Assembly (NCBI RefSeq): GCF_000517525.1
Contig: NW_013668828.1
Location: 33,672-54,171, forward strand
Direction: 5' to 3'
Length of the DNA stretch: 20,500 bases
DNA from: Limulus polyphemus
Lineage: Eukaryota
Of this stretch, positions 1,235-20,500 are shown piece by piece; within the stretch, counting starts at the first letter, position 1, and each line of letters starts with the position of its first letter. Both the position numbers and the translations under genes were made by a program. Under the pieces are notes generated by a model. That model was not told the DNA's origin and did no database searches. It saw only the letters and a list, made by a program, of their open reading frames with translations.

Positions 1235-4200
1235 TTTTATGCAAAGACTATTTACTTTACATTGACTTGGTTAGACGACAATCTTTGTTAACCATTCGTG
1301 CTTAGCCCATGATTCTATCTTGTTTGAAGATAATATATACAAAAGTGGAAACCTCCATCAGTTGCTATGTATGCTGAAGATCACCTGCAATACCCATAAA
1401 AAATGTGTTCTTTGACTACTGAGGATCCCAGTATAACTGACATGGACAGAGCATTCAATCTTGGGTCATGCTATGTAATATTGTTAGTGTACAAAACTAA
1501 AATGATAAATATAATAAAAACCAAAGTTTCATTAACAACTGCAAATCTCATCAAATTAAATGCAAATAAGAAAAAAGTTGACATATCTGTCCAATGCAGT
1601 GCTAAGGAGAAGTTATCATGAGTCCCACTGGTGAAGGTTTGTTTTTGCATGATCAAATCATCATCATGTACCAGCACAATTTATGTTCACCATATGAATA
1701 TAAGTGGGAGTAAGCTCAAGGCTAGTGGCATGGAAACCTCATAGGAGATGCAAGAGACGTATAGCATTTCTGTGCGTGTTATTTTATATCAAAACCACAT
1801 CAGGCTATCTGCTGTGTCCACTTAGGGGAATAGAACCCCTGATTTTAGTGTTGTAAATCCAAAGACTTACCGCTGTCCCAAAGGGGGATGCATTTCTGTG
1901 TGAAGAGGTAGATTATCATCTCAGAAATATTTTTAAATCAACATGAGAAACAAATCCAGCTACTTTTTTAAACAATATAAAAAAAAGCAATCAAGATAAA
2001 CTTTTACTCCAATACATCTATAAGTTTTTTTTCAGTTGTACAATGTAAAAGGAACACTGATAAAACTAACTTTTGTAGTTATTCTACTAAAAATACTTAG
2101 GTTTTTCTACTGCTTTATAAACTCAAAATCTAATGATCATAACAAAATAAACCATACTAACTTTTTGCCTTTACAACTGAACAAGCAAACAGTTCCATCC
2201 TGGTAGCCTGCTACAAGGTACCTTCCAACTTGACTCAAGCTAGTTATCATTCTTCGTACTTGCAGTGCTTGTATATCTAACAGGTTTGACCCATCCTCTA
2301 GCAAGACCACCTAATAAAGTAAACATAGTATTCATTCACATAATTTTAATGCAGTTCTTTACCTATTATCTCAAAAAAATGCTATGAAAAGGACATTCTA
2401 TTTCATGCTGAACCACTGTGAAGAAAGATTAGCCTTATTACTTGAAAGCTGCATATAACAGGAGATTAGGTTAGAATATTCACAAAACTTCATGGAAATT
2501 ATTAATATTCTCTATATTGTACAGTTGTTCTTAGTGTGATGTTCTTCTGATACGTAATGTTACTTAATGCTATTCAGTTCACTGAAACTTTCAGCAATCA
2601 GATGTTGCAGAATCTGTGATTTAAAATATGATATGGATTAATAAGACAAAGTTTTTACTTAGATTTCAAATCCAAAAACTTTAGAAAAAAAAAAGCAATT
2701 TGAAGATGAAAAAAATCTGGTGTTCATTAAACATCTGTAGTTAATATATTTCAACCAACTATAATATACTTCTCACAGTATAATTTAGAATCCAAGTACA
2801 CAGGCTTGTTCAACATCACTTTTACTGAATTTATAGAAAGTTAGAACTGAGCCAAGCAGGTTCAATGCTTATATTTACACTACAAAAACTCCTGAATGGA
2901 TTACATGTAGCTCTTGATTTTACACTGCTGACAAATAAAACCAAGAATTTGGATATTGAAACCCCACCTTTATCTGTCCAGTTTTAGATGCAACACATAT
3001 TCCACATAGAGTACCAGAAGAGGGTTTCTTAAAAGAGCTAATGCAGTTGACAGAGTCTCTAACTAGCATTTTTTTCCAAAACAGAGCACCTGGTAAATAT
3101 TCGTTATACACAAAAACCTTGAGTTGTGTTTTATTTTAAAAGAAAAGAAAACAATATACGTATTCACATAAAAAAAAAGCATGCATCAATTTAACAGTAT
3201 TATTACATTCTATATTATACCAAACAAAGATAGCTAGAATATAAACAAATTATTGCAACAAAGTAAAATGTAAGAAAATAGCTCTCAAAGCTTCATTTAA
3301 GATTCTACAATTCTTAAAAGTACAACTTAAATTCAAGAAGTTATTTTCATGCAGGAATCTTCTGGATAGGTATGTATTAAAACTAAATTTTATAGGCACT
3401 TCACGCACATATGCAGGAGGAGGTTTTGAGATGGTTTGGTTGAACCCCCTATTTTTGTGATGTAAAAAAATTATGCTTATAGTTATAGAGCAGCTACTAA
3501 TGATATTTAACGTTTTCGAAATAGTCTACATTATTCTGATGAAGCATTAGCATTTTTTGCCTTGAAACAGCCGCATATACCCAGACACGCAAAGCATTAG
3601 CATGCTCTGCAAGCTGATTATGCTTCGCACAATATGTGTTGGCTTTTGATCTTGCAAATAAGAACCCCTTCCTCTTAAGCATTCTGCATATGAGCCTGCA
3701 ATTTTAGAGAGAAATGTTACCTCTTTCCATACAGGGTTAGTCGATGTAACCAACCCTTTTAACCTCAAAGTAACCATCATAGTTTCTATACTATAATGTT
3801 TAACATGTTTTACGTATCTTTACAAAATTTAGCATGCTTTTAGTAAACATTACAGGTCTTTTGCACACAAAAAATCAGATTTTTCAATTAAGTACTTTAC
3901 TCAAGATTTACCCTTGAATATAAGGAATCATGGTGTTGACTGCTCAGAATGATTTTCACGTTAATATTAAAAATACTTTTCTTCATTTGAAAATTGTAAA
4001 ATGTCATTTGCTAGAATCTCTAAAACCTCCTAAGTAAATATCAAACTTTTTTTTTCAGTAAAATTTTGTTTTATCTGTGATTTTCTCTACCCAAACTTGG
4101 TCAATTTGACCAACCTTGTAATCACCCATAAAAAAATACAAAATAAATCTAAATCTTTTTTTTTCTAGAATGACTGCAGATTCGAACAGAAAATTACAGT

Positions 4201-6196
4201 TTTTACCTTAAACAGTTTAAGACTTGTAACAGTCAACATCTGTTTATATTTAATTTTATTGTTCTATGGCTCGTTGAATTGTGTCTAACTAGTTAATCCT
4301 GCCATACAAGTTGTAAATCACTTGATGAGCACATAGCTCACATTACATTTTGAACAACGTAATGCATTAGATGTTGATGAATGTCCCTCGTGCAGATTTT
4401 TTAGGATATTATTGTTCAATATCTTACCTAATCTAACCTAAAAATTTTCTAATTTTTACATCTTAGTTACTTTTGTAACAAAATGTGAAGAATATGCACA
4501 AGAAATATAGTAACTATAATTGCCCTTTTTTTGCTGTTGGTTGCAGATGAAATTTAAGCCTACTTTTTTATACTAATTGTACTAGTACACTAAATAATAT
4601 TTATGTACTTAAATAATGCACCTAGGGACACATAATAACATTCACAAAGCAAACGATGTCCTATAACTATCATAATATAAATGGCTTTCTAACTATGCTA
4701 ACTTTTAACTGAAACAACAAAATATAATGTCATTTGATAGATTGGCACTTTATACAATACTATTCATAACCAGTAGAAAAGCAAAGTTTTAGGATTAAAG
4801 GCTATGAAAATTAGACTTTGCCTTAGTAATATCTATGTTATAATGAGCAATTTATGTCAAATGCCATACTTCACAGAATGGTGGTAAATAAATTAAAGAA
4901 AAGAGAAGACCTAGAGGACAAATGTCATGATTCTCATAAAACAAGAGTTTGAAGATTTTTTAAAATATGCCCTAATAAAATTAAGAGCTTAAAACTTAAA
5001 TAATATTAAAATTTGCTTTATTAAAAACATTTTGATACCAATTTTATTAATATTCATTGATAATAAAGTGGTTTAATTAAATTTTGAATGTAACTCTCTA
5101 AAAGATCACAGCATGCACACTCTAACCTTCCTGCAATGAGAGGGTTAATCTGCATAGACAAAAAAAATCTATACAGAGTAATTTAGACCAAACACAAAAA
5201 TGTGTCTTTAAAAACAAGTATCAATATTGTTATTTGAGAAATAATTTAATCGAAGGAAATGTGAAAATACATATATAATGTATGTAAACTTTGAAATGTT
5301 TTCATTTTTAAAATGCTAGAAGAATCCTAAAACAGCAAAAATTATGAGAACACCTTAGTGAGAAAAAATTATGCAAGTTATTTATTTTTTTCTTTTGAAC
5401 AGAGAATGAAGAAAAATAAACTTATAAAAGGAAATAATCCATTAAATGTTTACTTCATGTATAAACCTGAAAAACGGCCATTGTACAAACATATACGTGT
5501 ATGATAGAAAAATGTGATATTTCTACATCTTACATTTGAAAATAAAGTTTTGTTTACACTTCCTTATTTTTGTGTTCTTTTGTTTATTTGAGATACTTCT
5601 GCAAATTGGCACAAGGGCTAACTACACTGCCTGTTTAATTGTGAACTGAGAGATCAGAGAAAAGGCAGTTAGTCAAAAGCACCCATCAACAATTCTGGGT
5701 TACTCTAACTGAAATAGTGAGTTATGAAAATCACTTCTATAATGCACTCACAGTTCAAAAGTATGAAGCACAATTTTTTGGCAACTGGCCAAAACACAAC
5801 TTTAAGAAACATGTTTCTTTAACAATATTGGCTGATCCAATTTCTAGGTAGAAATAAGAAAAAATAAAACAAACCATAATTAAATATACCATCTATTTCA
5901 AAATTGTATGTACAATTTGTTTATGTAGTTAGAAAAATTAACAATATTTTTAGTCATTTGAGATATGTCTACAAGAAATCAAGTTCTTCAATATTTACTT
6001 AAGTTTTAATTTTTTTAATAAATTGATTTTCTTTTAGTCAAATAACATTTGAAAAATGTTTGGAAATTTCTTGTTCTAACTAAAAAATAAAAAAATGACG
6101 TTTTTAATGAAAAGAACTTTTCATATTTTAATTTATTCAGCAAAATCAAATTCACTGCTTTCTCTGCAACTGAAGGTTAGAGTATTAATTGTGAAA

Positions 6197-6202
6197 TTTA
6201 TT
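6197..6202 (-). other. Putative polyadenylation signal AATAAA for the minus-strand WD40 gene
   Basis: The plus strand has 'tttatt' at 6197-6202, which is AATAAA on minus, about 100 nt downstream of the proposed TAA stop at 6305-6307. A second AATAAA on minus lies at 6132-6137. Confidence 0.25.
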
Positions 6203-6225
6203 ATACCCAAACTCTGCTATAGTAA

Positions 6226-6241
6226 TCTCTCTCTCTCTCTC
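6226..6241. repeat. (CT)8 microsatellite
   Basis: tctctctctctctctc, read directly. Confidence 0.9.
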
Positions 6242-6304
6242 AAGAAAAAAGTAATTACAGTAAATTCTAAATAAAAGTAATAACAAAGCTGTTAACACAT
6301 TATA

Positions 6305-6450
6305 TTATTCTACAACTACGTCTGTACAAGTAGAGAAAATAAGGGACGATACCAGCATCAAACTGATTAAGGCCACTAGATGCAAAGCTGAATGTATCAG
6401 ACGAGTTAAAGGGAACGTCTTAAAACAGCTCATATACATGCTCAAAAACT
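6305..6450 (-). CDS. Tentative terminal coding exon of the WD40 gene (hydrophobic C-terminal tail, includes stop codon)
   Basis: Minus-strand acceptor is 'cttgctccag|AG' (AG from plus 6451-6452). With the 1-nt carry (G) from exon 7058-7205 the frame reads [51 protein letters not shown], which is 47 codons open in about 30% GC DNA. AATAAA lies about 100 nt downstream. Phase-compatible, but not supported by homology I can recognise. Confidence 0.35.
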
Positions 6451-9400
6451 CTGGAGCAAGTAGTTCGTATAAATATTAAATAGATTATAAAGAGTTTTAT
6501 ATTAGAGATATTTTATGGAACCAAAACAAAAAATAGTATGACACAATCCAACATGAATTTTAACAAAGCTAAACATTATGTCTACAACATAAAGTAAAAA
6601 AATAAAATTATTTAAAGCAAATTTATCAACTATAATCTGTAACCTTTAGAAATTCTACACATAAGCAAGCACTGTGAATTCTTCAAAACAAACTTTCTAA
6701 ACCTTATGAAACAAAAAAAAATTTTTTAATGCTTCATCTACCATTTTCAAATAATTTCTAATAAAAATTCAAAAACATTATGCATAAGTATTTACAGCAC
6801 AATATCTGTAAATATTGTCACAAAGAAATGTGGTAACTTCAAATAAATTATTTCATCAACTTGGATTTTGACATTAGACTTCTCGCACACCAGGTGAGTG
6901 CTCTTTCAACTAAGCTAAAGGATTAACCCACTAGTACTTTTTAACAACTCAAGTTACTAAAGAATGTTTGGTAAGCTGCATACAGTACCTGTGTACTTAC
7001 TCTATTACAGATATTTTCTTCATAGTCTAATTAGGTTAGGTTTTCGTTGATTTTTACCTTTTTGTGTATCAAACAGACAGACTTCTCCAGTTTCTTGTCC
7101 AACAGCAACATAAGAAATATCCAAAAAGATCATACAAGTTGGAGTTGAAGATAAAACTGATTGAGGTATGGTGTGTACAACAGCCTTGCTGTAACTGATC
7201 CATACCTGCAATTATAGCAATTTTAAAACATTTAATACAGAAACTCTAGGGGGGGAAACTTCATAATTATGTGATGATAAGCTGATTAGGACAGTAGCAG
7301 TTATTTCTTGTTTTGATACAGATAAAAACTAAAAACTCGGCACTTTAGGAAAGACAATATTAACAAACTATGGGGTGTTATTTTAAAAGACAAATTAACA
7401 ATAAGCACAGCTCTAAAACAACAGCTGTAACATAGTAAAATCTTTACTAAAAATAATGTAAAGTTATATTTCTGAGCATTATATCCAAAACAAAGTTAAT
7501 TTTCACATGATCAGGAGGCAAAAGCTTTCTAAATGTAATATTTCAAAGCATAGCCAAGAAATACATTTAAATCTCTGTGAAAGAATTTGGAAAAAAAGAA
7601 ATTAATTAAGTATTCATTAGAATTGTGATAATAGTATGTAAAGATATCACATATTTCAATACTTTAATGCCAAATACCTTTAAGGTTCTATCTTTACTCC
7701 CTGTGATCATAATGTCCTCCGAAATTGAAAAAGATGCACATGTGACAGGAAGAATATGACCTTCCATTTTACCAATCTGAAAAGTGTCAAAACACTAACA
7801 ATTATTAATGATGACAAGAAACCCACTTGAAGTAAAAATGTATAGCAGAGACGGTTGGTATGGGTATTAAAAACTTTAATTAAAATAAAGTACAAGAACA
7901 ACGTTTCAACCTTCTTAAGTCATCATCATTTGTACTTTATTTAATTAAAGTTTTTAATACCCATACCAACCGTCTCTGCTATACATTAACAATTATTATT
8001 ATTATTTCATTTTTGTTTTCTTAAGAAATTTTGGTCCAAGTCTGCATAATAATCTTACTTACAAAACTTCCACTGTTTTTAGTTTGCAGAGTTAATAATT
8101 TTACTGGGATAAGTTCAAAGCCTTCAAGTAATACCATCATGATAGTGTACATAAAGACAAACAAAAAGAATAAAAAACATATTCTGGAGCTGCCAATTTA
8201 ACATTTTTGACATGAGGCTGACATGCCATTCTGTACATTGGTTACAAACCAACCATGAGAACGTACAGCTAGAGCTGGTGATAAACTGAACAAATACCTC
8301 TTCACCAGATAATAACCTTACAAAAAAACATGGAGATAAAATGCACATAACAATAAACAAAGGCAAAATAATCTTTTATTTTTGGCTTATGGTCATGTTC
8401 TGTTTTTTTTTAAAGTCCAACAAAGTTTCTATGTGTGAGTAATTTAGAAGATGAAGTACTACAATCCCCTTCACTAAACCTGAGTCAAAAACTTAGATGT
8501 TTAATTGTTTAGTAGTATGAATACTATTTATTATATGTAAGTAATGTAGCAGATGAAGTACTACAATCCCCTTCACCAAACCTGAGTCAAAAACTTAGAT
8601 TTTTAATTGTTTAGTAGTATGAATACTATATATTATATGTGAGTAATGTAGCAGATGAAGTACTACAATCCCCTTCACCAAACCTGAGTCAAAAACTAAG
8701 ATTTTTAATTGTTTAGTAGTATGAATACTATTTATTATATGCGAGTAATGTAGCAGATGAAGTACTACAATCCCCTTCACCAAACCTGCTGTAAATACAT
8801 TTATTACTAGTGAAGTGTACTAAGCTACATCTCAAAATGATGTTATTGCCATGAATATTTCTTATCATTGTATCTATTTGTTTGAGAAATGCCAACCTGA
8901 AGTAACTAAACAGGAAATTACACTTTTAATCTAGTGCAAGAATAACCCATGATTTATCTAATAATAATAATAATGAGCTGAATAAAAATAAATAAGTTAT
9001 AAGTTCACTAACCCGAGTACCTTGAGATGCTGACCACAGGAATACTTCCATTCTGGATGATGATGACACAATATGTTGACCACTAGTGCTAAAAGCCACA
9101 AATTGCACAGACCCTTTATGACCATGGAGGATCTAAGAAAATTATATGATACTTTAATAACAGCAATGTCTGACAAGTCCATTGACTTCATACTCATTCA
9201 AGGTGTCCACAAAACTATACTAATTACTATATTCTTTGGTGTCAGTTCCATATGTTTTACCTCTGCTCTGCCTATACAACAAATCACAACTGGTATAAAT
9301 TGGTTCAAACCTGCTTTTACAATAAATACACACAACAACAACAACAAAGATTAACACACATGCTTAAAAACACAATCGGTGAAATTCCTAATAGTTACAA

Positions 9401-12400
9401 CTATGCATGAATAAATAAATGTCAAAACAAATCATGTTATTTTTCACTATGATTCTCAGTAACTTCTACTAGTGTGATTACTCACTGCTTTTCTTCTAAC
9501 TGTAACAAGATCCCACAGTTTAACTGTTTGGTCCCATCCTCCACTAACCAGTAGCTGCTTCTCTGGATGAAAATCTATACAGCTGACTGGTTTCCTAAAA
9601 CATAAATTATCTTGTTATTCTACTATAACGTATTTTAATTTTTTTATGAAATAGAAGTACTTTAACTAACAAGAATTTATACATGTATCATGACCAATGA
9701 GGAATGTAATTTCAAACTATATTAGCTCCACAAGTTTGGCCGTCTCAGCACCAACCTTTTTATGTCTTCAAACACAGAGTAGTAGACTTTATTTATGCAC
9801 ATTTCTACTGCTGAAGTTGGAATATGATTTCATATTACAATTAGCATAACTGAACATGCTGGAATGAGTCTTAATAAACATTCTATGCAATGAAAAAGTA
9901 TTCAGGTAGTATATACATCTGTAAGAAATGTTAAGCACTTACATAACTTATAGATGGTTCTAAACATCCGTAAATTTGAAAAGCAAAATAAAGGAAGTAT
10001 TCTGATAATCCACACAAGTAACCAAGAAAAGTATTTATTCAGTATTTCTGTTTTATGCATGCCACAGTTGAATGCAACTCATATAAAACAAATAATTTTG
10101 ATACTGCATCTTTCTTTTTTTTCACCAAGATTTAAGAATTAGGATCCTACCAATATTTCTAGTACAGTGAAAACTATAGAATTTTCAATGAAAATTAATA
10201 ATTTAACACTTGACTTTAATGATAAAGTATACAGATGATGTAATACATGTGCTATTATGCCTTATTACTTCAACCGTTACAATAAATCACAACCGATGCA
10301 CCAGGAAGGAATGAAAACCAGTGCACTTTGATAAGCTAATTAGTTTCATGAAATTAATAAATTTAATTGATACTCAAGGTAATCAACTGATCAAGTTAAC
10401 TGCTCAGTTCTAACTGTATACAGCACTGAAAAATATACATTTTTCATTGAAACACTTATTTGTATTAGAAGTTAATGTCTATGAACCTGTAGCCACATGT
10501 AGTTTGCATGTTTTTTATGTTACTCTGAGTGATATTTTAACTCCTTATTTAGGAATTACACACATACTGAAAAGACTAATTAATTTGGGGCAAATCTTGG
10601 GTAACTCAGTCTATTACATGGTTGGAATGCATTTTTGGATATTTGGTTTGAATTCTATTTTCAAAACCTCGTAAATTATTGGTTTACAAGCTCCTACTAC
10701 ATACACATATTCATAATAATTTTACTTCTTTACTTCTGACTTTTACTCCTGAACAACAATCCTTACTTGTTCTGTTTAATACAGGTAATTTCTCTACAGT
10801 CTTTCCCACTCCAGATTCTTATTGTTTTGTCCCATCCTGTAGAAACAATGGTGGTTCCATCAGGATCAGAAGCACAGGAAGTTACACTTCTTATGTGACC
10901 ATCTAAAACTCCAATTCTGTAGTAACAACCAAAAAAAAAAAGATATTAGTGTAACTCATATTATTTTAATTATTTCTTTTTACAAAACAAAGCAATATAG
11001 GTCTAAATAAGAATTTTCTCTGAATAAAACTCAGCAAGAATTAAAATAATTTTTAAGAGATGAATCTACAATGAATAATGAATGTTATGTATAAAAACCT
11101 CAAGTATTATATAAAACACCTGGAAAATAATACTAAGTAAAACAAATCATTACAACAAGAAAATCTCCAAAATACAAAAAGTCATCTTGCAGCTTGTAGG
11201 TATTTGCTATTTTCAACCTGAGTAACAACGTATGTAATGTGCTAAATAGCCAGGACAGACACCCAAAAGTTCAAACTTAGCAACCTCTAATTTAATACTG
11301 CTAGTCAGAAAAGGGACAACCAGTCAGATGCACCTACTACCAAATAGCATGGTGTGACAGTCACAATCATAATTTTCCCACAACTGAAAGTGCAGAGCAT
11401 TTACAGAGGCATTTCATGACTCAGGCTTTGAACCTTCCAAACCACAGCTTGGCATACTAACCACAAGGCCATACTAATCCCAGGATCTTTAAATAACAAT
11501 TAGTAAACATACACTGAGCGTACATGTAAATACCCATAGTTAAATGATTTCATTAGCAAGTATAAGAAATTATGTGCACATTTCTTTAAGTATTCCAGAC
11601 ATCTTTAAAGTTATCCAGGCAAATTAACTACATGAATAGTCTATAACCACTGAAGAATGCCAATGACACTTACCTTTTATATACCTTCATTAAATTTGAG
11701 CAATAACTACTGTAACAACTTGACATAAATCAATTTTCTGTGTGAAAATTAGTTAATTACTGAGGTAAATCTAAAAGCAGTGGAATTGGCAACATTTAAT
11801 ATATGTTGAAGGAAATATACATAATATCAAAAAGAAATCTCACTGGAATAAAAAACCACTTAGTTATGACGAGTAACTGTTAAAAGTCATTGAACTTTTC
11901 TCTATGGAAACTAGGCCTTGATTTATACAAATGCTACTGTGTGTAATAATACTTAAACAGAAAGGTGGGAAGAATGAAAAATGCTTTACAGTAGAATTAA
12001 AAACAACAACTATATAGTTGTGTTGACTATTGAAAATTATCTAAATCTGTTTATCTATCTATGTATATAAATTAGGCCTCAGTCACACATGTGATTGTGG
12101 ATATTAATAACTAAATTCAAAGAAAAGAAGAATGAGAAAAACCCTTCTGAGTAAAGTTGGTGATATATGTTCAGTATCAGTAAAATATCACTTGGATGAT
12201 ACTTACAAAACAAATGACGATTCAAAATATTCAACAACATAAACAGTAGGTGTTAAAAAAGCAAGTCTAGAGTGATAAACGGATTCAAATCAATATTTGT
12301 AAAAATAGGTGAGATTTTATGCAGCTTCAAGCTTCAAATTTTTTTCTTCAATTAATATGTCTTGTACTTACAAAAAATAGAAGCATATACCTTGCGTTTT

Positions 12401-14309
12401 TTATATCTATGCAGTTCAACAAAGTTTAAAGCTAATAGCTAAGAGAAGTTGTATTTTTCCCATAAATTTAACTGTGAATTTATAATATTTTAGTTTATTC
12501 ATAAGTCTCTTTCATTTTATTGTTTTGTCTGGTCAAGGTTGTATGTAAATCTGACATTATAAATTATATTTAAATATATAATTGGAATAATTTATTTATA
12601 ATACTCTGAGTTTCTAAATAATTCATTTCAGACTATAACTTTCACTGTGAGAAATGTCTTTTGTTAATTCTAAAAGACAACACTTTGTAATAGGTGATTC
12701 CTCAGATATTGATTTGCTAAAAAAAGTTAAATATTTTCTTACCTATATCCTCTTGTTATGTCCCACAAACATAAGCTTTTATCTACTGAAGAACTGCATA
12801 ACTTGTCATTTCCCACAAAACATATACTTGTTATTTTCTGAATGTGGCCTGTTAATGTACGTTTTATCTGTAACAAAGATATTGAAGATATTAAGAACAG
12901 TAACTATTTCTACAGGAGAGTAGCAGCATATACTCTTGTAAACAATCCCAAAAATCAGGTACTAAGTGTTGAATCAAATCGATGACAATGTACACCTACA
13001 AATCATCATCAGCTAAATTTATTTCTTAAGCATGGTTTAGTATTACAGCATGTGACAGCCAGCAAGGTAATAATCTATTTTAATAAACCCCAAACTTTAC
13101 AATTGAAATGTACTAATTGTTCATTTATTATCCAAAAAAAATATATTCTCCAACACAAAGTCCTACTTAAAAGTGGAGTTATCTGCACTAGCAGTTTCTT
13201 AACCCTCTCACTATAGGTCTTCCTATAGGTCAGGGGTCAAAGGGCATGCCATCATGTTTGTAGACTTACATTCAAAATTTTATTGATCTACTATTTTATG
13301 AATGTATGCCAATATGTTTGGTATCACATTGTACATTATAATTCTAATTTTAGTATTATATATATTAGTTAATTTCTTAATTTAAAAGCAACTATAAAAA
13401 CAAAATTCATAAATATCAATTTTTGTGTGTCACATGATATATTTAATGCAGCTTTGATTCGAATTAGATGTTTGTGATGTACAAATTCTATAGTTTCTTA
13501 TGAATTAAAAACTCAAATTACTGATATTGACAAGCTAGAATATAAAATAAAACTTCCTTTTTTTCTTCTGAGATATCACTACATTTAGTAAATCAAACAC
13601 AGTGGGCCCCGCCCACCTCTTTCATTTTTGGCTTGCTTACGTACACCTACTCTGTCTATGACGTGTAAATAACCAAGTAAAAGCTCAGAATGTCTTCCAC
13701 ATTGTTTTCTCAGCCTCTAGGAGGTTGAAAGTTCCCAAGATTATTTCTTTGTTTCGGATCTTGGAAGGAATGGGTAAGTGAAAATTTTGTCCAAAACACA
13801 ATATTTTTTTTTACCCAAATACAGTTTAGTTAGTAAGTCTGATAAATTACGCTGGATTACTGCAATATCAATAGTCATTTATAGTATTTGGTTCTTTCAA
13901 AATGCATATATAAAACCTAAAAAAAAATATTTTCTTTTACATCCTCCACGTGAAAAATTTGACAAGGCTTACCAAATTACGACAAGCAGGCAAACAAGTA
14001 AAAAGTTTGTAAGTAGAAAAAATCATTGTTTTTCTATATTTCTTTATATACTGTTCTATGTTTTAAGAAAACTAATCCAAATTTTATAACTTATTTGTAA
14101 AGATAATAATATATATACATATATAATGTATTATAACTGAAACGCGACTGTATTTTACAAAATACTGGTCCACTAGAACAAACCGTAGACAGATCAATTT
14201 GTAAAAGCCAATTTTATACTATTGAATACAGTTACACGAGTGCACCGAGCCGCATCAATGCAACTTTTGTAATGTTAGTTAGACAGAGCTTAAAGGTCAA
14301 TAAAATAAA

Positions 14310-14344
<35 letters not shown>

Positions 14345-15780
14345 TGTATAATGTTATGAGATTTAAGCTATTTAGAGTAAACATTTATGGATTCTTGTTA
14401 TAATTTGTAGTCATTCAAGAACAAAAAATGTGTAATTTATATCCATTTCCTAATTTTTTACGTTGGTTATGAGGTCAGTCAAATAGACTAAACTCATACA
14501 GAGATACAATAGTGAAATAACAGATAAAATATAAAGTTCTTTCAAAAACAAAACGTTTGATAATTATCTGGTGGTTATTAGGAGGTTATAACTTGACAAT
14601 TTTCTGATGCATAAAAGTATTTTTAATCTTAAAATCAAAATTATTGTTTTTTGGATAGTCAAAATTCTAAAAATAAAAAAAATGTGCAGGCAACTCATTG
14701 CTTCAAAAATCTTAAAACTTAATAAACAAAATCAGATATATTGTGTACTAAAGCCTTGTATTGTTTACTGATAATCTTTAAAATTTTGTGAAGATACACA
14801 TACTGCATTAAAAGTCATAGTATGAAAACTATAACAAGCACCAAATAGTACGAAATTGGTCCCTGGGACAGAGCATGTAGTGAGAGAGTAAATTTTGAAC
14901 TGAAAAACTAAAGGGATGGCAGCTAGTCAGAATTACCCACTGAAGGATGTCATCTAGTCAGAATCTCCTACTTAGAGAAGGCAGCTAGTTAGTATTACCC
15001 ACTGCCATCTCTTTGGTTAGTCTTATCAAAGTGGAATTTGAAGTTACTTTTATAATGTACTCATGGCCCTAAAGTGCAGAGCATGGTTTTACTGCAACAC
15101 TAGACCACTGCTGGTGCCATTTGAAAAAAAACTAACAAAGGCACTCAAAGTGGTACCAAGGTTTAGCCTATATTCCTGTGAGATATGCAAGTTATTTTCT
15201 TATGCAGAATATTTATGATGACTACTTAGGAAGGAAATTCACAACGACAGTGATACTCATATAGATGAGATTGTAAATTTTTGCTGTATTTTGATGGCTT
15301 AATCTTATTATTAATTGTCATACTGGAACATCTGATTATAGATAGTTTTTTTACCTCCCATGCTAGAATTATTCAGGAGAGCAGTCAGATCAAGGAGTAA
15401 AACACTAAATCAGAAAATAACAGTAAGACCACTGTTATACAATCTCATATTGTCATGTGAACAAATAAATAATACACTTGCGTTTTCCTCTCCAGAACTT
15501 TTCTCACAAATTTCTCGATCAAATGATACAAATCTCATATCATAAGAAAGGCCTTTATCCTACTAGTCTGGATTGCATATTGGCTTTTCCATTTAGAATC
15601 ATCTTACCTGTTTTAACATTACATCCACCTTAAAAGGCTGCACATTTGACACAGATCTCAAAATCATAAAAAAAAAGCACTTACAGAACCAGTTTGGACA
15701 TCTATAAGTCTTATTACACCATCCTGTCCTCCTAAACCAGCAATATCACCCTTCCTTGAAACTGCCAGACACTGTATTGG
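6305..15780 (-). CDS. Gene-level span of a multi-exon WD40-repeat (beta-propeller) protein gene; the 9 exons are listed separately and the 5' end probably lies further upstream
   Basis: Eight exons with canonical AG/GT boundaries join in phase, and their conceptual translation contains at least 7 WD40-type blades (GH...WD-like units). See the individual exon entries. Confidence 0.75.
6848..6935 (-). repeat. Degenerate tRNA-like SINE head fragment
   Basis: The minus strand reads 'gggttaatcctttagcttagttgaaagagcactcacctggtgtgcgagaagtctaatgtcaaaatccaagtt'. It has a D-arm-like 'TAGCTTAGTTGAAAGAGC' and 'ATCCAAGTT' resembling the B-box region of the SINE heads at 18720-18789. Similarity is weak. 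Confidence 0.2.
7058..7205 (-). CDS. WD40 gene coding exon (phase 0 start, 1 nt carried out)
   Basis: Minus acceptor is 'ttgctataattgcag|GTATGG' and donor is 'CAAAAAG|GTAAAAAT'. It encodes [49 protein letters not shown](+G). It joins the upstream exon as ...GSKDRTLK|VWI..., a classic WD blade end. Confidence 0.7.
7678..7776 (-). CDS. WD40 gene coding exon (99 nt, phase 0/0)
   Basis: Minus acceptor is 'cttttcag|ATTGGT' and donor is 'CTTAAAG|GTATTTGG'. It encodes [33 protein letters not shown], a GH...TGSxDxTxK WD repeat. Confidence 0.75.
7837..7987. repeat. Near-perfect ~150-bp palindrome (two ~57-bp arms, ~36-bp loop); MITE/foldback-like hairpin in an intron
   Basis: Left arm 'aatgtatagcagagacggttggtatgggtattaaaaactttaattaaaataaagtaca' is at 7837-7894. 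Right arm 7931-7987 is its reverse complement, with one 1-nt indel (aaaat versus aaat). The loop is 'agaacaacgtttcaaccttcttaagtcatcatcatt'. Confidence 0.8.
8063..8121 (-). CDS. WD40 gene coding exon (59 nt; starts with 2 nt completing Gly codon, ends phase 0)
   Basis: Minus has a long polypyrimidine tract 'ttttttattctttttgtttgtctttatg...cttgaag|GC' and donor 'AGTTTT|GTAAGT'. With the carry-in G from exon 9021-9132 it encodes [20 protein letters not shown]. It is the only stop-free frame, and its phase matches both neighbours. Confidence 0.6.
8431..8787. repeat. Intronic tandem repeat, about 3.5 copies of a 102-104-bp unit
   Basis: Unit 'atgt(g/a)(a)agtaatgtagcagatgaagtactacaatccccttcac(c/t)aaacctgagtcaaaaacttagat(t/g)tttaattgtttagtagtatgaatactat(t/a)tattat' starts at 8431, 8535, 8637 and 8739. 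The minus ORF 8595..8783 is a read-through of this array. Confidence 0.85.
9021..9132 (-). CDS. WD40 gene coding exon (112 nt, phase 0 start, 1 nt carried out)
   Basis: Minus acceptor is 'tttcttag|ATCCTC' (AG from plus 9133-9134) and donor is 'CTCAAG|GTACTC'. It encodes [37 protein letters not shown](+G), a textbook WD blade (GH..V..VAFS..G..IVS.S.D..V.LW). An in-frame TAG lies immediately upstream of the acceptor. Confidence 0.8.
9486..9594 (-). CDS. WD40 gene coding exon (109 nt; 1 nt completes Lys codon, ends phase 0)
   Basis: Minus acceptor is 'tttatgttttag|GAAACC' and donor is 'AAAGCA|GTGAGT', a consensus donor. It encodes (K)[36 protein letters not shown]. Confidence 0.85.
10767..10916 (-). 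CDS. WD40 gene coding exon (150 nt; phase 2-type start, 2 nt carried out)
   Basis: Minus acceptor is 'tatcttttttttttggttgttactacag|AATTGG' and donor is 'CAGAACAA|GTAAGG'. It encodes (R)[49 protein letters not shown](+AA). The upstream exon's AG plus A gives Arg. The carried AA plus G of the next exon gives Lys. Plus-strand ORF 10679..10906 is its antisense shadow. Confidence 0.85.
11220..11478 (-). mobile_element. tRNA-derived SINE copy (intronic, same orientation as the host gene)
   Basis: Minus-strand head is 'cctgggattagtatggccttgtggttagtatgccaagctgtggtttggaaggttcaaagcctgagtc', with an A-box-like TGGTTAGTA and a B-box-like GGTTCAAAGCC. The body 'gcctctgtaaatgctctgcactttc...ctgactagcag' is homologous to 14900-15118 and to the other SINE copies. 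Confidence 0.55.
12743..12867 (-). CDS. WD40 gene coding exon (125 nt, phase 0 start, 2 nt carried out)
   Basis: Minus acceptor is 'cttaatatcttcaatatctttgttacag|ATAAAACG', with an in-frame TAG just upstream, and donor is 'GGATATAG|GTAAGA'. It encodes [41 protein letters not shown](+AG). The junction with exon 15685-15780 reads ...LIDVQTGS|IKRTLTGH..., a canonical WD blade boundary. Plus-strand ORF 12654..12923 is its antisense shadow. Confidence 0.85.
13596..13775 (+). promoter_or_regulatory. CpG-containing promoter-like module plus a putative first exon of a plus-strand transcript (ATG-G followed by GTAAGT), nested in the 2.8-kb intron of the WD40 gene
   Basis: Read directly: GC/Sp1-like box 'gtgggccccgcccacc' at 13602-13617; CRE-like 'tgacgtgt' at 13659-13666; TATA-like 'taaataacc' at 13666-13674; ATG at 13770-13772 in 'ggaaggaATGGgtaagtg', with a consensus GTAAGT donor directly after ATG-G. 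CpG is clustered locally in otherwise CpG-poor DNA. The minus strand has no ATG-containing ORF here, only a GTAAGC donor at about 13635-13640. Confidence 0.35.
14314..14342. repeat. (TA)14 microsatellite
   Basis: atatatatatatatatatatatatatata, read directly. Confidence 0.9.
14826..15120 (-). mobile_element. tRNA-derived SINE copy (intronic, sense to host gene) with an internal ~25-bp motif present 3 times
   Basis: Homologous to the 17846-18064, 18512-18789 and 11220-11478 copies ('ggcagctagt.a...cccactgcca.ctcttgg...' and '...aaagtgcagagcat...'). The motif 'ggcagctagtcagaattacccactg' occurs 2.5 times (14910-14934, 14972-14996, and partially 14940-14960). Confidence 0.55.
15685..15780 (-). 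CDS. WD40 gene coding exon (96 nt, phase 0/0); most upstream exon identified
   Basis: Minus acceptor is 'ctctctttctgtag|CCAATACAG' and donor is 'GGTTCT|GTAAGTGC', a consensus donor. It encodes [32 protein letters not shown]. Confidence 0.8.
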
Positions 15781-15888
15781 CTACAGAAAGAGAGACAGAA
15801 TAACTGAAGTACAAATACTAATTAGTCTTAATATGAGAAATAAGAACCAACTACATAGATGTAAAAACATTATAACTGACCAAATAAA

Positions 15889-16300
15889 GACAGGAGTTTT
15901 ATAGAATATCTTTGGGTTTTAATGATTAAGGTTTTGTTTTTTAAAAGATTTTATTCAATGTTAAAACCATAACAGGAGTTTTATAGAATATCTTTGGGTT
16001 TTAATGATCAAGGTTTTGTTTTTAAAAGATTTTATTCAATGTTAAAACCATAACAGGAGTTTTATAGAAGATCATTGGGTTTTAATGATCAAGGTTTTGT
16101 TTTTTAAAAGATTTTATTCAATGTTAAAACCATAACAGGAGTTTTATAGAATATCATTAACATTGAATAAAATCTTTTAAAAAACAAAACCTTGATCATT
16201 AAAACCCAAAGATATTCTATAAAACTCCTGTTATGGTTTTAACATTGAATAAAATCTTTTAAAAAACAAAACCTTGATCATTAAAACCCAAAAACCAAAA
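15889..16300. repeat. Composite palindromic array: about 3.1 direct copies of an ~88-bp unit (15889-16158) followed by about 1.6 inverted copies (16159-16300)
   Basis: Direct units 'acaggagttttatagaatatc(t/a)ttgggttttaatgat(t/c)aaggttttgtttt(t)taaaagattttattcaatgttaaaaccata' start at 15890, 15972 and 16063. From 16159, 'aacattgaataaaatcttttaaaaaacaaaaccttgatcattaaaacccaaagatattctataaaactcctgttatggttttaacattg...' is the reverse complement. The predicted foldback has a stem of up to about 140 bp and a loop of about 30 nt. Confidence 0.85.
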
Positions 16301-17845
16301 GTTGTATGTAACTAAGAAAATAACAAAAATCCAGGACCATAATGCTGGATTAGACTAAAGATTTTTTTACCATGTTAATGTTTTTATACAAACAAAGAAA
16401 GCTTTAGTACTGGGTTAGAAAATAGATGATGAATGTTACAAAAAATAAAGACTGCCAAAAGAGTATTGCTTTATATTTGAAAAACTTTCAGAAAAACTGT
16501 TAAAAATGAAGGAAAAAAAATCAAGTTTACCATAACTTTAACATCGCTTCATACTACAATGTATGTATAGTACAAGGTACTTGTATAGCTTCAAGTCTGT
16601 TTTACTGGGTCAAATACATTATTATACAATTCCAAAAGGAATATCAATGAACCTATGTGTATTTCACCGAGTTAATTTGTTAATAATATAATGATTACTT
16701 TTATAATTACAGGGTTACTTACAAAAACAAAGACTATATGTTTCTGAATTATTAATTAAAAATAGTTATTACACATATTTTACTTATTTAAATTTTACTA
16801 ACCAATAACCTCCTTTGGAGTTATTATTTCAGTGTTTCTATATGTTTTTCAGATAAAAGCTCTATACACATTCTACATAAACAGAGAACAGTTATACAAG
16901 TACAAGCCTATATTTTAATTTATAATAGCTTGTACATGAAGATGAATAGGTGCTAATAAGGCCTCTTGGTTGCTCACCTTTAATCATGGAAAAATTGTTC
17001 TACAACTTCATAAGTTATATTTCTTCCCATAAAATATGACCGTATGAGGAAAAGCCATAAAAACAACCTTTCCATCAGCATCTTAAGACATTAATGGCAA
17101 GACATAAAGATAAGCTTATATGTGCAGCTGTAGGAACTACTTACCTCTCTGAATTCAGATAATGTCAACCTAAGGGGTTCAGGGAACTGAGGCCTTGTTA
17201 ACCAGTGGATGGCCCAAGCCGATGTATTTTGTACTGCATCAGTATACACGCACGAAGAGTCTGGTTCATTAAGGGCCTGTTGTCGTACCAAACTGGGGTA
17301 CCTTTGAACACCCAAAACAAATATATATCTTAATTTATATACCAAAGTTCTTGTCAGTGTATCATTTTAATATTTAATAGATACTTTATGTGAAAATTCC
17401 AAATTTACTAACTATTGTTGTGAAGTTATAATTTATAAATAATAAAACATTCAGATGTTAAAGTTTTTCCACCATTTTATAGCTGTTTTACTTTTCATTT
17501 GTGATTAAATGTATAATATTACTGTAAGAATTTCAAAGAATATCATTTCATGCTTGTTTTTTACAGCACATAAGTTTACTGTTTGATGTTTCTAACGTAA
17601 AACTCTTCTTGTAGGCGCTATTGTGAAATTATATACGTAATAACATCTTTGCAATAGGCATTTCTGCTTTCGTTATAAGCAGTCTGGTACATACAGAAAA
17701 CTCACTATGTATGTGGTATATGCAGGCACACTATGTGTTTCTTACATATTATATAGGTAGTGCTTGCATCCTTAGAATAGTAGTATTATTGTTTAATGTA
17801 CAAAATGATGTATTTACTTAATCAGAAACAGCTTTGGTTTTAGAT

Positions 17846-18064
17846 TTTTTCTGCAAAGTTTGCTTGAGGGTTATCTCCACTTCTCATCCATAATTTAGAA
17901 ATGACAGACTAGAGGAACGGCAGCTAGTCAACACTATCCACCATCTCTTAGGCTATTTTAATCGAATACTGGCATAGAATGTCAAATTATAACATCCCCC
18001 ACGGCTGATAGGACGAGAATGTTTGGTGATGGGATTTGAACCCGTTACCCGTAAAGGTGTCACA
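17846..18064 (-). mobile_element. tRNA-derived SINE copy (sense to host gene)
   Basis: Minus-strand head is 'gtgacacctttacgggtaacgggttcaaatcccatcaccaaacattctcgtcctatcagccgtggggg...', with B box GGTTCAAATCC. The body 'ggcagctagtcaacactatccaccatctcttaggc' and the tail are homologous to 18512-18789. Confidence 0.6.
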
Positions 18065-18511
18065 AAATAAACTTTTAATTTGATTAATTTGTTTGGGTGT
18101 TCAGTAAAGGTTGTTTCAGTGTGTTTCACTTTGTTTCCACTCTTTCTTTACTTTGAATTTAGTTGAGGTCAGAGAATTCAGATTCACACCATAATACATT
18201 TTCTGTTGAAACCTCCTTATGTTCTGTGGCTCTTATTCAAATAATCTTAGATGGAAATCAGTGAACATGTGAAGACCACATGTTCCTTGAATTTTACTGG
18301 ACCATGGCAAATCAAAAGGGTTACTGATCAGGGTTGGAATACCCCAAAACTGATATAACTCGGTGACAAGTGGTAAATCAAATGATAGATTAAGCTTCAA
18401 ATTTATTTTTTAGTATTTTAAAAAGTTTGTCAGCTGAATAATTCAGAAGAATAAATTAGTAGCATCAATGATGCTTATTCTTGAAATTCCTATATAAATA
18501 TAAGATAACTG

Positions 18512-18789
18512 TTGGTTTGTTCGTTTTGAATTTCGTGCAAAGCTACATAAGGGCTATCTGTGCTAGCCATCCCTAATTTAGCAATGTAAGACTAGAGGGA
18601 AGGCAGCTAGTCATCACCACCCACTGCCAACTCTTGGGCTACTCTTTTACCAACGAATAGTGAGATTAACCATCACATTATAATGCCCCCATGGTGGAAA
18701 GAACAAGCATGTTTGATGGGACGGGGATTCGAACTTGCAACCCTCAGATTGCGAGTCGAGCACTCTAACCACCTGGCTAGGCTGGGCCC
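18512..18789 (-). mobile_element. tRNA-derived SINE copy, most complete (tRNA-like head, conserved body, 'gtagctttgcacgaaattcaaaacgaacaaacc' tail)
   Basis: Minus-strand head is 'GGGCCCAGCCTAGCCAGGTGGTTAGAGTGCTCGACTCGCAATCTGAGGGTTGCAAGTTCGAATCCCCGTCCCATC'. It has an A-box-like TAGCCAGGTGG and a B-box-like AGTTCGAATCC. It is followed by a tRNA-unrelated body shared with the three other copies. Confidence 0.7.
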
Positions 18790-19046
18790 TAAGATCACTG
18801 TCTGAGTATAAGACATATCAAAACACCATACATATAATGCTTCTCGCTAACAAAACAAAAAGCAACACAAACATGGTAAGTAACACTGAAATGGAATAAT
18901 ACATTTTCAGGTATGATGTGCCATATTTACAATTTTTCTTAAACAGTAGCACAAAAACATCATTTACATTCTATTTAAAATTAATGTGCAATGGTATTAG
19001 AACTGCGAGCATAAACATAGAAATGATTTTGATGTTGGAGATGCAT

Positions 19047-19617
19047 ACTGTAAATATTATATCCTCAATGACTGAGGAGTGTGATAACACCTCTTATACC
19101 ACACTGTAAATATTATATCCTCAATGACTGAGGAGTGTGATACACACCTCTTATACCACACTGTAAATATTATATCCTCAATGACTGAGGAGTGTGAAAA
19201 TACCTCTTATACCACATTGTAAATATTATATCCTCAATGACTTAGGAGTGTGATAACACCTCTTATACACCCCCTTAAATATTATATCCTCAATGACTGA
19301 GGAGTGTGATAACACCTCTTATACCACACTGTAAATCAGTCATTGAGGATATAATATCTACAGTGTATCTGTTTCAATCATTATTTTTGAAGTGTACAAG
19401 TATGTTTTGTGTATATCACTCTACTGATATTTAATTGTCCATTTACATTTGAGTACTACTATCTATGATTTTGTCATTGTGAAATGCAATAATAAATTGT
19501 TTCTTGACCATGAAGCAGAGAGGTGAGAAGTGTGGTATAAGAGGTGTTTTCACACTCCTCATTTATTGAGGATATAATATTTACAGTGTGGTATAAGAGG
19601 TGTTATCACACTCCGTA
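19047..19617. repeat. Tandem array of 5 copies of a ~57-bp unit (19047-19335), followed by a short inverted partial copy (19336-19365) and, after a ~160-bp spacer, 2 inverted copies (19526-19617)
   Basis: Unit 'actgtaaatattatatcctcaatgactgaggagtgtgataacacctcttataccac' starts at 19047, 19103, 19160, 19218 and 19273. 'cagtcattgaggatataatat' and 'gtggtataagaggtgtt(t/a)tcacactcctca(t/g)t(t/c)attgaggatataatatttacagt' are its reverse complement. Plus-strand ORF 18918..19109 is a read-through of this array. Confidence 0.85.
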
Positions 19618-19649
19618 TATAAAAAAATCAACACTACATTTTTATTATT

Positions 19650-19993
19650 TTAGTAGGAAGTTATGCTCAAAACTACTAACCTCAACAAAATGTGAAGGTT
19701 TCGAGATATAAACTGGTAGTAAGCTGAAACTTTTTTGTTCAAATTCTCATCTTTGTTAAATGTTTTTACTGTTGATATCCCAGTGATAAGCAAAGAGTTG
19801 AAATTGTCCAGCAAGCATGATCCTTGACCAAGTCGAAAATAAGCCTCAATAAAGCTGAGGTCACAGAAGATTTCTGATAGATATTTAGTGCAAGATGCCC
19901 TGCATAAATGGTATGGAAGGGCCTGAAAAGCTTCTGGCCATTTACCTGTCCAGGTTTTAGAGCCTTGAGGGTCAGCCTTATGTAACATTAGAG
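19650..19993 (-). CDS. Coding exon of an uncharacterised protein, probably a 3'-terminal exon; may belong to a separate upstream gene or to the 5' part of the WD40 gene
   Basis: A 124-codon open frame in about 30% GC DNA, with locally raised GC. The minus strand has a strong acceptor 'tatattttattttag|CTCTAATG' (AG from plus 19994-19995). The in-frame stop is at 19650-19652, with AATAATAAAA on the minus strand about 10-25 nt downstream. An internal consensus donor 'ACAG|GTAAAT' and 'TTGAG|GTTAGT' are alternative exon ends. The product reads ...LMLHKADPQGSKTWTGKWPEAFQALPYHLCRASCTKYLSEIFCDLSFIEAYFRLGQGSCLLDNFNSLLITGISTVKTFNKDENLNKKVSAYYQFISRNLHILLRLVVLSITSY*. I do not recognise any family. Confidence 0.4.
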
Positions 19994-20295
19994 CTAAAAT
20001 AAAATATATTAAATATATGGCCAAATTAACTAATGAACCTAATAATTTTTAACTTGAAGCTCAGTCAGTTAGAAACTACAGTAAAAAAAAAGTATTTAAG
20101 GCATGAAAACCCAATATTATTAAATAATTACTCATTTCATTAATGATGGTCTAGATTTCAAAGTTTTTGTTCAAAAAAAAAGAAGAATAAAAATAGCAAC
20201 ACACAATATAATTTATATACAATCCTTTCAATAATTGGTACAGAATATTTAATACTATTAGAAAAATGAGAAATACATAAATTACAAAAACAGTT

Positions 20296-20470
20296 TGTAT
20301 ACAGCTACAAGCAGTGGTGGGATTCAGCCGGTTCGCACGAACCTGTTCTTAGAATTTAATGACCTCCACGAACCGGTTGTTAACAATCGTATGTATAGGC
20401 CTAATAATAACGTTACAACTTACAAGTATGCGTGTTTACAGCGCAACTTTACCTAGCAGGCTAGGCGGAC
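20296..20470. promoter_or_regulatory. CpG-rich motif cluster at the window edge (candidate promoter or 5' region of the minus-strand gene containing exon 19650-19993, or of a gene beyond the window)
   Basis: It holds 11 CpGs in about 170 bp, against near absence elsewhere. 'CACGAACC' is repeated at 20337-20344 and 20378-20385. The 'AACCGGTT' palindrome is at 20382-20389. The inverted pair is 'ccggttcg' (20326-20333) and 'cgaaccgg' (20380-20387). Confidence 0.3.
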
Positions 20471-20500
20471 TAGGTCTACTAGATCTCTGATGAATCATTT

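Follow-up and report, generated by a model that had tools for sequence, protein, structure and literature searches.

Gene context of the repeat

The window, which is the whole stretch of Limulus polyphemus DNA analysed here (20,500 nucleotides of contig NW_013668828.1), is AT-rich (~30% G+C) eukaryotic DNA without long open reading frames. At positions 19047-19614 it carries a repeat in which direct copies of a 56-bp unit are followed by inverted copies of the same unit. A six-frame Pfam scan of all open frames of at least 45 amino acids gave matches to WD40 and APAF1_C alone, all of them on the minus strand, while the plus strand had none. The APAF1_C match is located in the open reading frame 19650-20024 (minus strand) and is weak when this frame is taken alone (23.3 bits, E = 6.4e-5). 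Within the frame there is an exon with an acceptor (ttttag/CTC) at 19994/19993 and a donor (AG/GTTAGT) at 19681/19680, and the donor is the exact end of the Pfam alignment. Another exon, 17301-17145, follows ~2.4 kb downstream of the 19681 donor with matching phase. The spliced product of both exons matches APAF1_C with 37.0 bits (E = 3.8e-9), covering profile positions 32-130 of 135 and spanning the exon junction. The features of the host gene are:

19681-19993, minus strand: internal coding exon of the APAF-1 helical domain (Pfam APAF1_C and splice signals)
17302-19680, minus strand: intron holding the entire foldback repeat and two SINE-like repeats (phase-consistent splice from 19681 to 17301)
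17145-17301, minus strand: next coding exon, end of the APAF-1 helical domain (acceptor ...caaag/G, donor GAG/GTAAGT)
12903-12742, 10945-10766, 9614-9459, 9132-8929 and 7794-7609, minus strand: WD40 exons (combined WD40 E = 2.2e-37)
about 7211-7023 and 2310-2140, minus strand: further WD40-repeat exons

The first-pass annotation had placed the repeat immediately 3' of a candidate terminal exon and proposed an action in the 3' flank of that exon. This does not hold, since the consensus donor, the in-phase splice that raises the APAF1_C score and the downstream WD40 exons all indicate that exon 19681-19993 is internal. As the exon splices onward, the repeat is intronic and lies ~65 nt from the 5' splice site. 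Judging from the predicted exons, the window from 2140 to 20500 is inside an APAF-1-like (NB-ARC/WD40) gene on the minus strand, and the local gene model is corrected in this sense. When a protein collection was searched for homologues of the exon, of the concatenated exons and of a SINE translation, the result was either empty or made up of generic WD40 proteins, with no close annotated homologue among them, and exact-protein look-ups found none of three window open reading frames on record. Moreover, the exon had no significant match among solved structures, and a full-text literature search with sequence strings returned unrelated primers only.

Anatomy of the foldback repeat

The repeat is made of a direct array, an orientation switch and two inverted pieces that are separated by a unique segment:

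19047-19335, plus strand: direct array with 5.2 units of the 56-bp unit ACTGTAAATATTATATCCTCAATGACTGAGGAGTGTGATAACACCTCTTATACCAC (Tandem Repeats Finder, repeat search, unit slicing, identity matrix)
19047-19102, 19103-19159 (57 nt), 19160-19215, 19216-19271 and 19272-19327: the five full direct units
after 19327: sixth direct unit, of which only the 9-nt start is present
19335-19336: orientation-switch junction, where the direct unit ends with ...ACTGTAAAT (phase 9) and the reversed unit begins with TCAGTCATTGAGG (phase 29, descending)
19336-19366, minus strand: inner inverted piece, 31 nt, reverse complement of unit positions 1-29 plus 2 nt
19367-19528, no strand: unique segment (the "loop"), 162 bp, with edges exactly AGTGT/AGTGT (duplication search)
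19529-19614, minus strand: outer inverted piece, 86 nt, 1.5 units (repeat search, BLAST of the unit)

According to Tandem Repeats Finder the direct array extends over 19047-19336 and has 5.2 copies of period 56, with 92% matches (score 513). In the repeat search the spacing from unit to unit is 57, 56, 56 and 56, so that of the five direct 57-bp units described in the first-pass annotation the number stands and the period is corrected to 56, with 57 nt in one unit only. The small palindrome CCTCA...TGAGG, which had also been pointed out there, is present in every unit as CCTCA-ATGAC-TGAGG (for example at 19063-19077). There are several short inverted repeats within the unit, which are potential hairpin nucleators. 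The copies of the unit have diverged freely. Both edges of the block are sharp, and degenerate 56-bp units were found neither in the flanks nor in the 162-bp segment. The left boundary reads ...GATGCAT/ACTGTAAAT and the right boundary ...CACACTCC/GTATATAAA, as the outer inverted piece stops abruptly at ...CACACTCC. The outer ends are at different phases of the unit, phase 1 on the left and phase 30 on the right.

In the minus-strand reading of 19047-19614 each 56-bp unit opens with TA/CAGTGTGGTATAAGAGG, which is like the terminal motif of Tc1/mariner inverted repeats. Tc3 reportedly starts with CAGTGTGG. Given this start motif, the unit might be derived from a transposon end.

The orientation switch at 19335/19336 has no filler and at most 1 nt shared between the two sides. 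The sequence observed across it is CTGTAAAT/CAGTCATTGAGG, which can also be written as ...CCACACTGTAAAT/CAGTCATTGAGG, and the 30-mer spanning it is ACCACACTGTAAATCAGTCATTGAGGATAT. The inverted partial unit that had been described after the direct array is the 31-nt inner piece, which is 97% complementary to the direct units in the repeat search. The inner piece terminates with ...CTACAGTGT at 19366, so its end contains one copy of the 5-bp duplication AGTGT (19362-19366). The outer piece opens with AGTGTGGTATAAG at 19529, and its first five bases (19529-19533) are the second AGTGT copy. Its 86-nt arm (19529-19614) lies 198 nt away from 19245-19330, to which it is 91% complementary; with more distal direct units the complementarity reaches up to 97%. 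It had been described as two inverted full units; the right arm holds ~1.5 units, and 2.0 units are reached only together with the partial unit.

When 19336-19361 and 19529-19614 are joined, reverse-complemented and with one AGTGT dropped, they form a continuous sequence of 112 nt. This sequence corresponds in register to exactly 2.0 units, and its identity to the consensus-like direct units is 96%. A register match alone would be expected by chance in ~1 in 5 cases if any overlap of 0-10 bp is allowed and in 1 in 56 cases if it has to be exact. Because AGTGT is found at both edges and removal of the segment restores 2.0 units in register, the inverted array probably acquired the 162-bp segment by a later insertion. 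The segment is dissimilar to the unit, lacks a terminal inverted repeat, occurs only once in the window and matches no Rfam family, and apart from the 5-bp AGTGT there is no target-site duplication around it. Neither the segment nor the flanks of the repeat show similarity to the rest of the window. If the segment is indeed a secondary insertion, then the direct and the inverted array originally lay side by side, separated only by a short spacer (35 nt, or 20 nt in an alternative register), in the same anatomy as the sister locus described below.

Folding of the repeat

As single-stranded DNA the repeat folds with -135.6 kcal/mol, compared to -50.6 +/- 4.4 kcal/mol for shuffled sequences (z = -19.3), and none of 100 shuffles folds as well. 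The sense-strand RNA reaches -241 kcal/mol (z = -18), and its predicted fold has an outer duplex of 86 bp and, at the junction, an inner hairpin of ~24 bp that is near-perfect. The repeat is thus a real and statistically unambiguous foldback repeat. A foldback with a stem of about 90-110 bp and a loop of about 190 nt had been proposed before; the foldback itself is genuine, with a pairing of 86-112 nt, and the loop is probably the later 162-bp insertion. According to the folding model the single-stranded DNA can extrude a hairpin or cruciform of ~86-112 bp. As transcription of the host gene passes through the repeat, the pre-mRNA would form the same duplex.

This raises the question of a functional intronic hairpin, in which the pre-mRNA duplex is processed to small RNAs (hpRNA, endo-siRNA or miRNA-like) or modulates splicing. 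The location in a transcribed intron, ~65 nt from the 5' splice site, and the predicted RNA duplex are compatible with it, and hpRNA loci and MITE-derived miRNA loci likewise consist of a long near-perfect inverted repeat in a transcribed region. Unlike such loci, the repeat has no match to a curated RNA family and no identifiable target: Rfam gave 0 matches at gathering thresholds in the window, and relaxed thresholds yielded generic hairpin matches only, the best of which reaches 30 bits where the gathering score is 119. No target-like similarity was found anywhere else in the window. Furthermore, the copies of the unit are freely diverging and the structure is broken by the 162-bp insertion. 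Taken together we regard a functional hairpin as highly improbable, and the repeat probably has no dedicated function. If small RNAs did map to the repeat, double-stranded RNA would originate from it within an intron of an apoptosis/immunity gene.

A sister locus and plain tandem arrays

The design of a direct array followed by inverted copies is present at two loci of unrelated sequence in the window, 15890-16292 and 19047-19614, as the first-pass annotation had proposed. The arrays found besides the 56-bp array are:

15890-16292, plus strand: sister locus with direct and then inverted 82-bp units, intronic
1066-1231: plain tandem array, 82 bp, 2.0 copies, 95% matches
8430-8788: plain tandem array, 102 bp, 3.5 copies, 95% matches

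The sister locus lies in a downstream intron of the APAF-1-like gene and is composed of 3.3 direct 82-bp units (15890-16155), one ambiguous base and 1.65 inverted units (16157-16292). Its arms are 96-99% complementary with a spacer of 29 nt, and its folding z-score is -34. At its junction (16155/16157) the sequence ...GAATATC is followed by A and then by TTAACATTG.... The units of the two loci have no sequence similarity and no terminal motif in common, and neither the 56-bp nor the 82-bp unit has a second copy elsewhere in the 20.5 kb. No inverted copies were found for the two plain arrays, which are related neither to each other nor to the two foldback loci. With these two additional arrays, minisatellites are common in the window.

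In the neighbourhood of the sister locus, 63 bp past its inverted arm, there is a degenerate stretch of 36 nt (16356-16392) with ~80% identity to the reverse complement of the junction region 16143-16179. This similarity is borderline within the window (E = 0.005).

Comparison with DNA transposons and Helitrons

Arms built of tandem subrepeats and of unequal length are characteristic of the foldback transposons, such as FB, Galileo and Tetris in Drosophila and Rehavkus in arthropods and annelids. The repeat could therefore be read as a decayed or truncated non-autonomous element of this type, with the sister locus as a second family of the same superfamily. Several observations agree with such an origin. 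The arms of the repeat consist solely of the 56-bp unit and pair over 86-112 nt with 91-97% complementarity, and the same is true for the 82-bp unit of the sister locus. They are of unequal length (5.2 versus 2.0 units and 3.3 versus 1.65 units), and the design is seen twice with a family-specific sequence each time. In non-autonomous foldback copies, as in the repeat, the middle segment is small or absent and there is no coding capacity. Foldback elements whose inverted termini contain tandem repeats have been documented in arthropods (Tetris, PMC4079207; Rehavkus, PMC12581902 and PMC6446971), and the mariner-like element at 179-725 is other DNA-transposon debris in the same window.

Both Tetris, with a flanking domain and target-site duplications of 8-10 bp (PMC4079207), and Rehavkus, with 9-bp target-site duplications and terminal inverted repeats of 26-400 bp (PMC6446971), have hallmarks that differ from what we find here. 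No target-site duplication of at least 4 bp was detected within +/-8 nt of the ends of the repeat, and the ends of the sister locus show only a weak and offset direct repeat, ACCAAA. By comparing the left flank with the reverse complement of the right flank we found no inverted repeat at either locus, as 298 of 300 and 44 of 300 shuffles, respectively, score equally well. In contrast to foldback transposons, the repeat has no outer flanking or terminal inverted-repeat domain, and its outermost termini are asymmetrical (phases 1 and 30). A target-site duplication of 7-10 bp and matching end phases are missing at both loci, although the arms are merely 3-9% diverged, so that a duplication should still show. 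Moreover, no transposase is encoded in the window. The foldback element suggested in the first-pass annotation is thus borne out in its arrangement of a direct array plus inverted copies and contradicted by the missing target-site duplication, flank inverted repeat and matching end phases. The repeat is not an intact transposon, and we consider its descent from a foldback-type transposon somewhat unlikely.

Helitron-type elements often carry tandem arrays in invertebrates. Such arrays are discussed, for example, in PMC12581902. A non-autonomous element derived from a Helitron or Helentron, with an internal tandem array, would agree with the lack of a target-site duplication at the repeat. The hallmarks that were named for a Helitron-like element in the first-pass annotation were checked: the termini 5'-TC and 3'-CTRR and the A/T insertion site are absent at both boundaries and on both strands, and apart from the repeat itself no unique hairpin lies in a subterminal position. 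Neither Rep or helicase nor transposase domains were found on either strand of the 20.5 kb, which for Rep and helicase is weak evidence against a Helitron, as non-autonomous copies come without the protein. An array that is itself present in inverted copies is not among the features of Helitrons. We therefore judge a Helitron origin to be extremely improbable.

Origin of the repeat

The nearest published anatomy is that of the satellites TfSat01 and TfSat03 of Tribolium freemani and TCAST/Cast7 of Tribolium castaneum (PMC12581902). In TfSat01 the orientation switch consists of an abruptly ended monomer followed by a reversed monomer that is truncated elsewhere, without extraneous sequence, and in the Tribolium switches the inversely oriented subarrays are of unequal length and show no extra divergence (PMC12581902). 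The repeat resembles these satellites in its head-to-tail monomers, in its two inverse and unequal subarrays, in the predicted hairpin and in reversed units that are no more divergent than the direct ones. It likewise has two inverse subarrays of a single monomer and a filler-free junction between truncated monomers, as in TfSat01. The differences are in scale, location and sequence: the repeat has 7 units in ~0.4 kb of a euchromatic intron, whereas the Tribolium arrays are centromeric and extend from kilobases to megabases, the unit sequences are unrelated, and at the repeat a 162-bp insertion splits one of the arms.

The repeat is non-coding repetitive DNA, with ~5.2 forward units abutting ~2.0 reversed units in an intron of the APAF-1-like gene. 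We tentatively interpret it as a dyad-symmetric minisatellite that originated in situ through tandem amplification plus one strand-switch event, a reading to which we assign a probability of roughly 0.45. The order of events that we infer would begin with a local 56-bp sequence being amplified in tandem through slippage or unequal exchange. A single strand-switch or end-joining event would then have placed a truncated unit head-to-head with a reversed one that is cut short at another phase. Candidates for this step are a replication template switch and break repair against the sister or complementary strand, and each would yield dyad symmetry. Later a 162-bp fragment would have inserted into the reversed arm with the 5-bp duplication AGTGT, which would have created the apparent loop.

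Two other ways of producing the inverted copies were rejected. A simple two-break inversion with one break in the flank is ruled out by the 31-nt reversed partial unit, which separates the unique segment from the direct array. Fold-back primed by a hairpin at the palindromes of the unit predicts the junction ...CCACACT/CCTCAGTCATTGAGG, which differs from the observed ...CCACACTGTAAAT/CAGTCATTGAGG.

Fold-back inversions in general (PMC3907307, PMC11724301, PMC7467729) share with both loci an inverted copy beside a direct copy and a short single-copy spacer. Hairpin-primed fold-back synthesis requires a short inverted microhomology at the junction (PMC3907307, PMC11724301). Unlike in fold-back inversions, no inverted microhomology is present at the boundary between spacer and inverted copy at either locus: at the repeat ...TAAAT is not complementary to AGGAG beside the start of the copy, and at the sister locus ...ATATCA is not complementary to AACCAT, both being read on the present-day sequence, in which later mutation is possible. 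A further difference to fold-back inversions is that the reversed units of the repeat are not closest to the adjacent direct units. They are 92-94% identical to the adjacent units in mirror register and 96% identical to distal units, which is contrary to what a recent local copy predicts. The joining could have occurred by end joining or by a homology-free template switch, or the pattern could be due to later homogenisation. The fork-stalling or template-switch event put forward in the first-pass annotation may thus have made the junction, although without priming microhomology.

The sharp edges of the array, without decayed flank units, would also fit the insertion of a ready-made block. The repeat would then be a piece of a dispersed satellite in which the orientation switch pre-existed and which entered the intron through break repair or as reintegrated extrachromosomal circular DNA (eccDNA), hence without transposon termini. 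The arbitrary phases of the units at these edges, the lack of a target-site duplication and the fact that the reversed units are nearer to the family consensus than to their neighbours are in line with a pasted block, and for Tribolium conserved inversion junctions and spread by eccDNA have been proposed (PMC12581902). Against it, neither unit has a second copy in the 20.5 kb, and it would be a coincidence if two unrelated satellites had ended up in neighbouring introns at a distance of 3 kb. Metagenome and viral contigs, which are collections without the source organism, gave 0 matches when they were scanned for exact patterns of the 56-bp unit; as the control scan of the metagenome contigs with the core of the window's SINE also gave 0 matches, these scans are uninformative on copy number. 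We consider the insertion of such a block unlikely. If the same junction did recur genome-wide, the repeat would be an example of the dispersal of dyad-symmetric blocks.

The occurrence of the same design twice within 3.5 kb, with about two reversed units and spacers of ~30 nt in both cases, is somewhat suggestive of a family. The two loci might then represent an undescribed class of small hairpin-forming repeats, each a tandem array head-to-head with about two reversed units and a spacer of ~30 nt, which would spread, for example by hairpin or circular DNA intermediates, and have neither terminal inverted repeats nor target-site duplications. Alternatively, they might be kept in their introns because they provide double-stranded RNA that acts on the immune/apoptosis host gene. 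Both proposals together appear very unlikely to us, and neither dispersal throughout the genome nor a source of small RNAs is indicated by the present evidence. The repeat is ordinary repetitive DNA of a kind familiar from insect satellites and foldback transposons and, as it stands, a detail of annotation. What it does show is that abrupt orientation switches, as they are found in large centromeric satellites, also exist in small euchromatic minisatellites.

Other repeats in the window

Besides the arrays there are several dispersed repeats in the window. Positions 179-725 hold an internally deleted Tc1/mariner-like element with inverted arms of 126 nt, which are 83% complementary and start with TACAGGGTGTCCCAAAATGAAT. 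The interior still resembles a mariner transposase near its C-terminus (...SPDLTPL...IEEPNLRIRDA...), a likeness seen in the translated sequence, while Pfam gave no match to it. A near-perfect palindrome of 151 bp is located at 7837-7987, with arms of 48 nt that are 100% complementary and a loop of ~35 nt. The arms can be extended through ATAAAGTACA/TGTACTTTAT, and the palindrome is MITE-like; no clear target-site duplication was found for it.

SINE-like copies were found at 17867-18060 and 18550-18790, which are the two in the same intron as the foldback repeat, and fragments at 14891-15024 and 5637-5688. The core of the SINE-like repeat (GGCAGCTAGTCA...CCCAC) is conserved, and its G+C-rich tail (GGGATTCGAAC...) is tRNA-like. 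This SINE-like repeat may resemble an abundant horseshoe-crab repeat. On the minus strand at 1816-1887 ARAGORN predicts a tRNA-Cys with the unusual anticodon ACA, which is probably a tRNA-derived repeat head or a pseudogene and not a functional gene.
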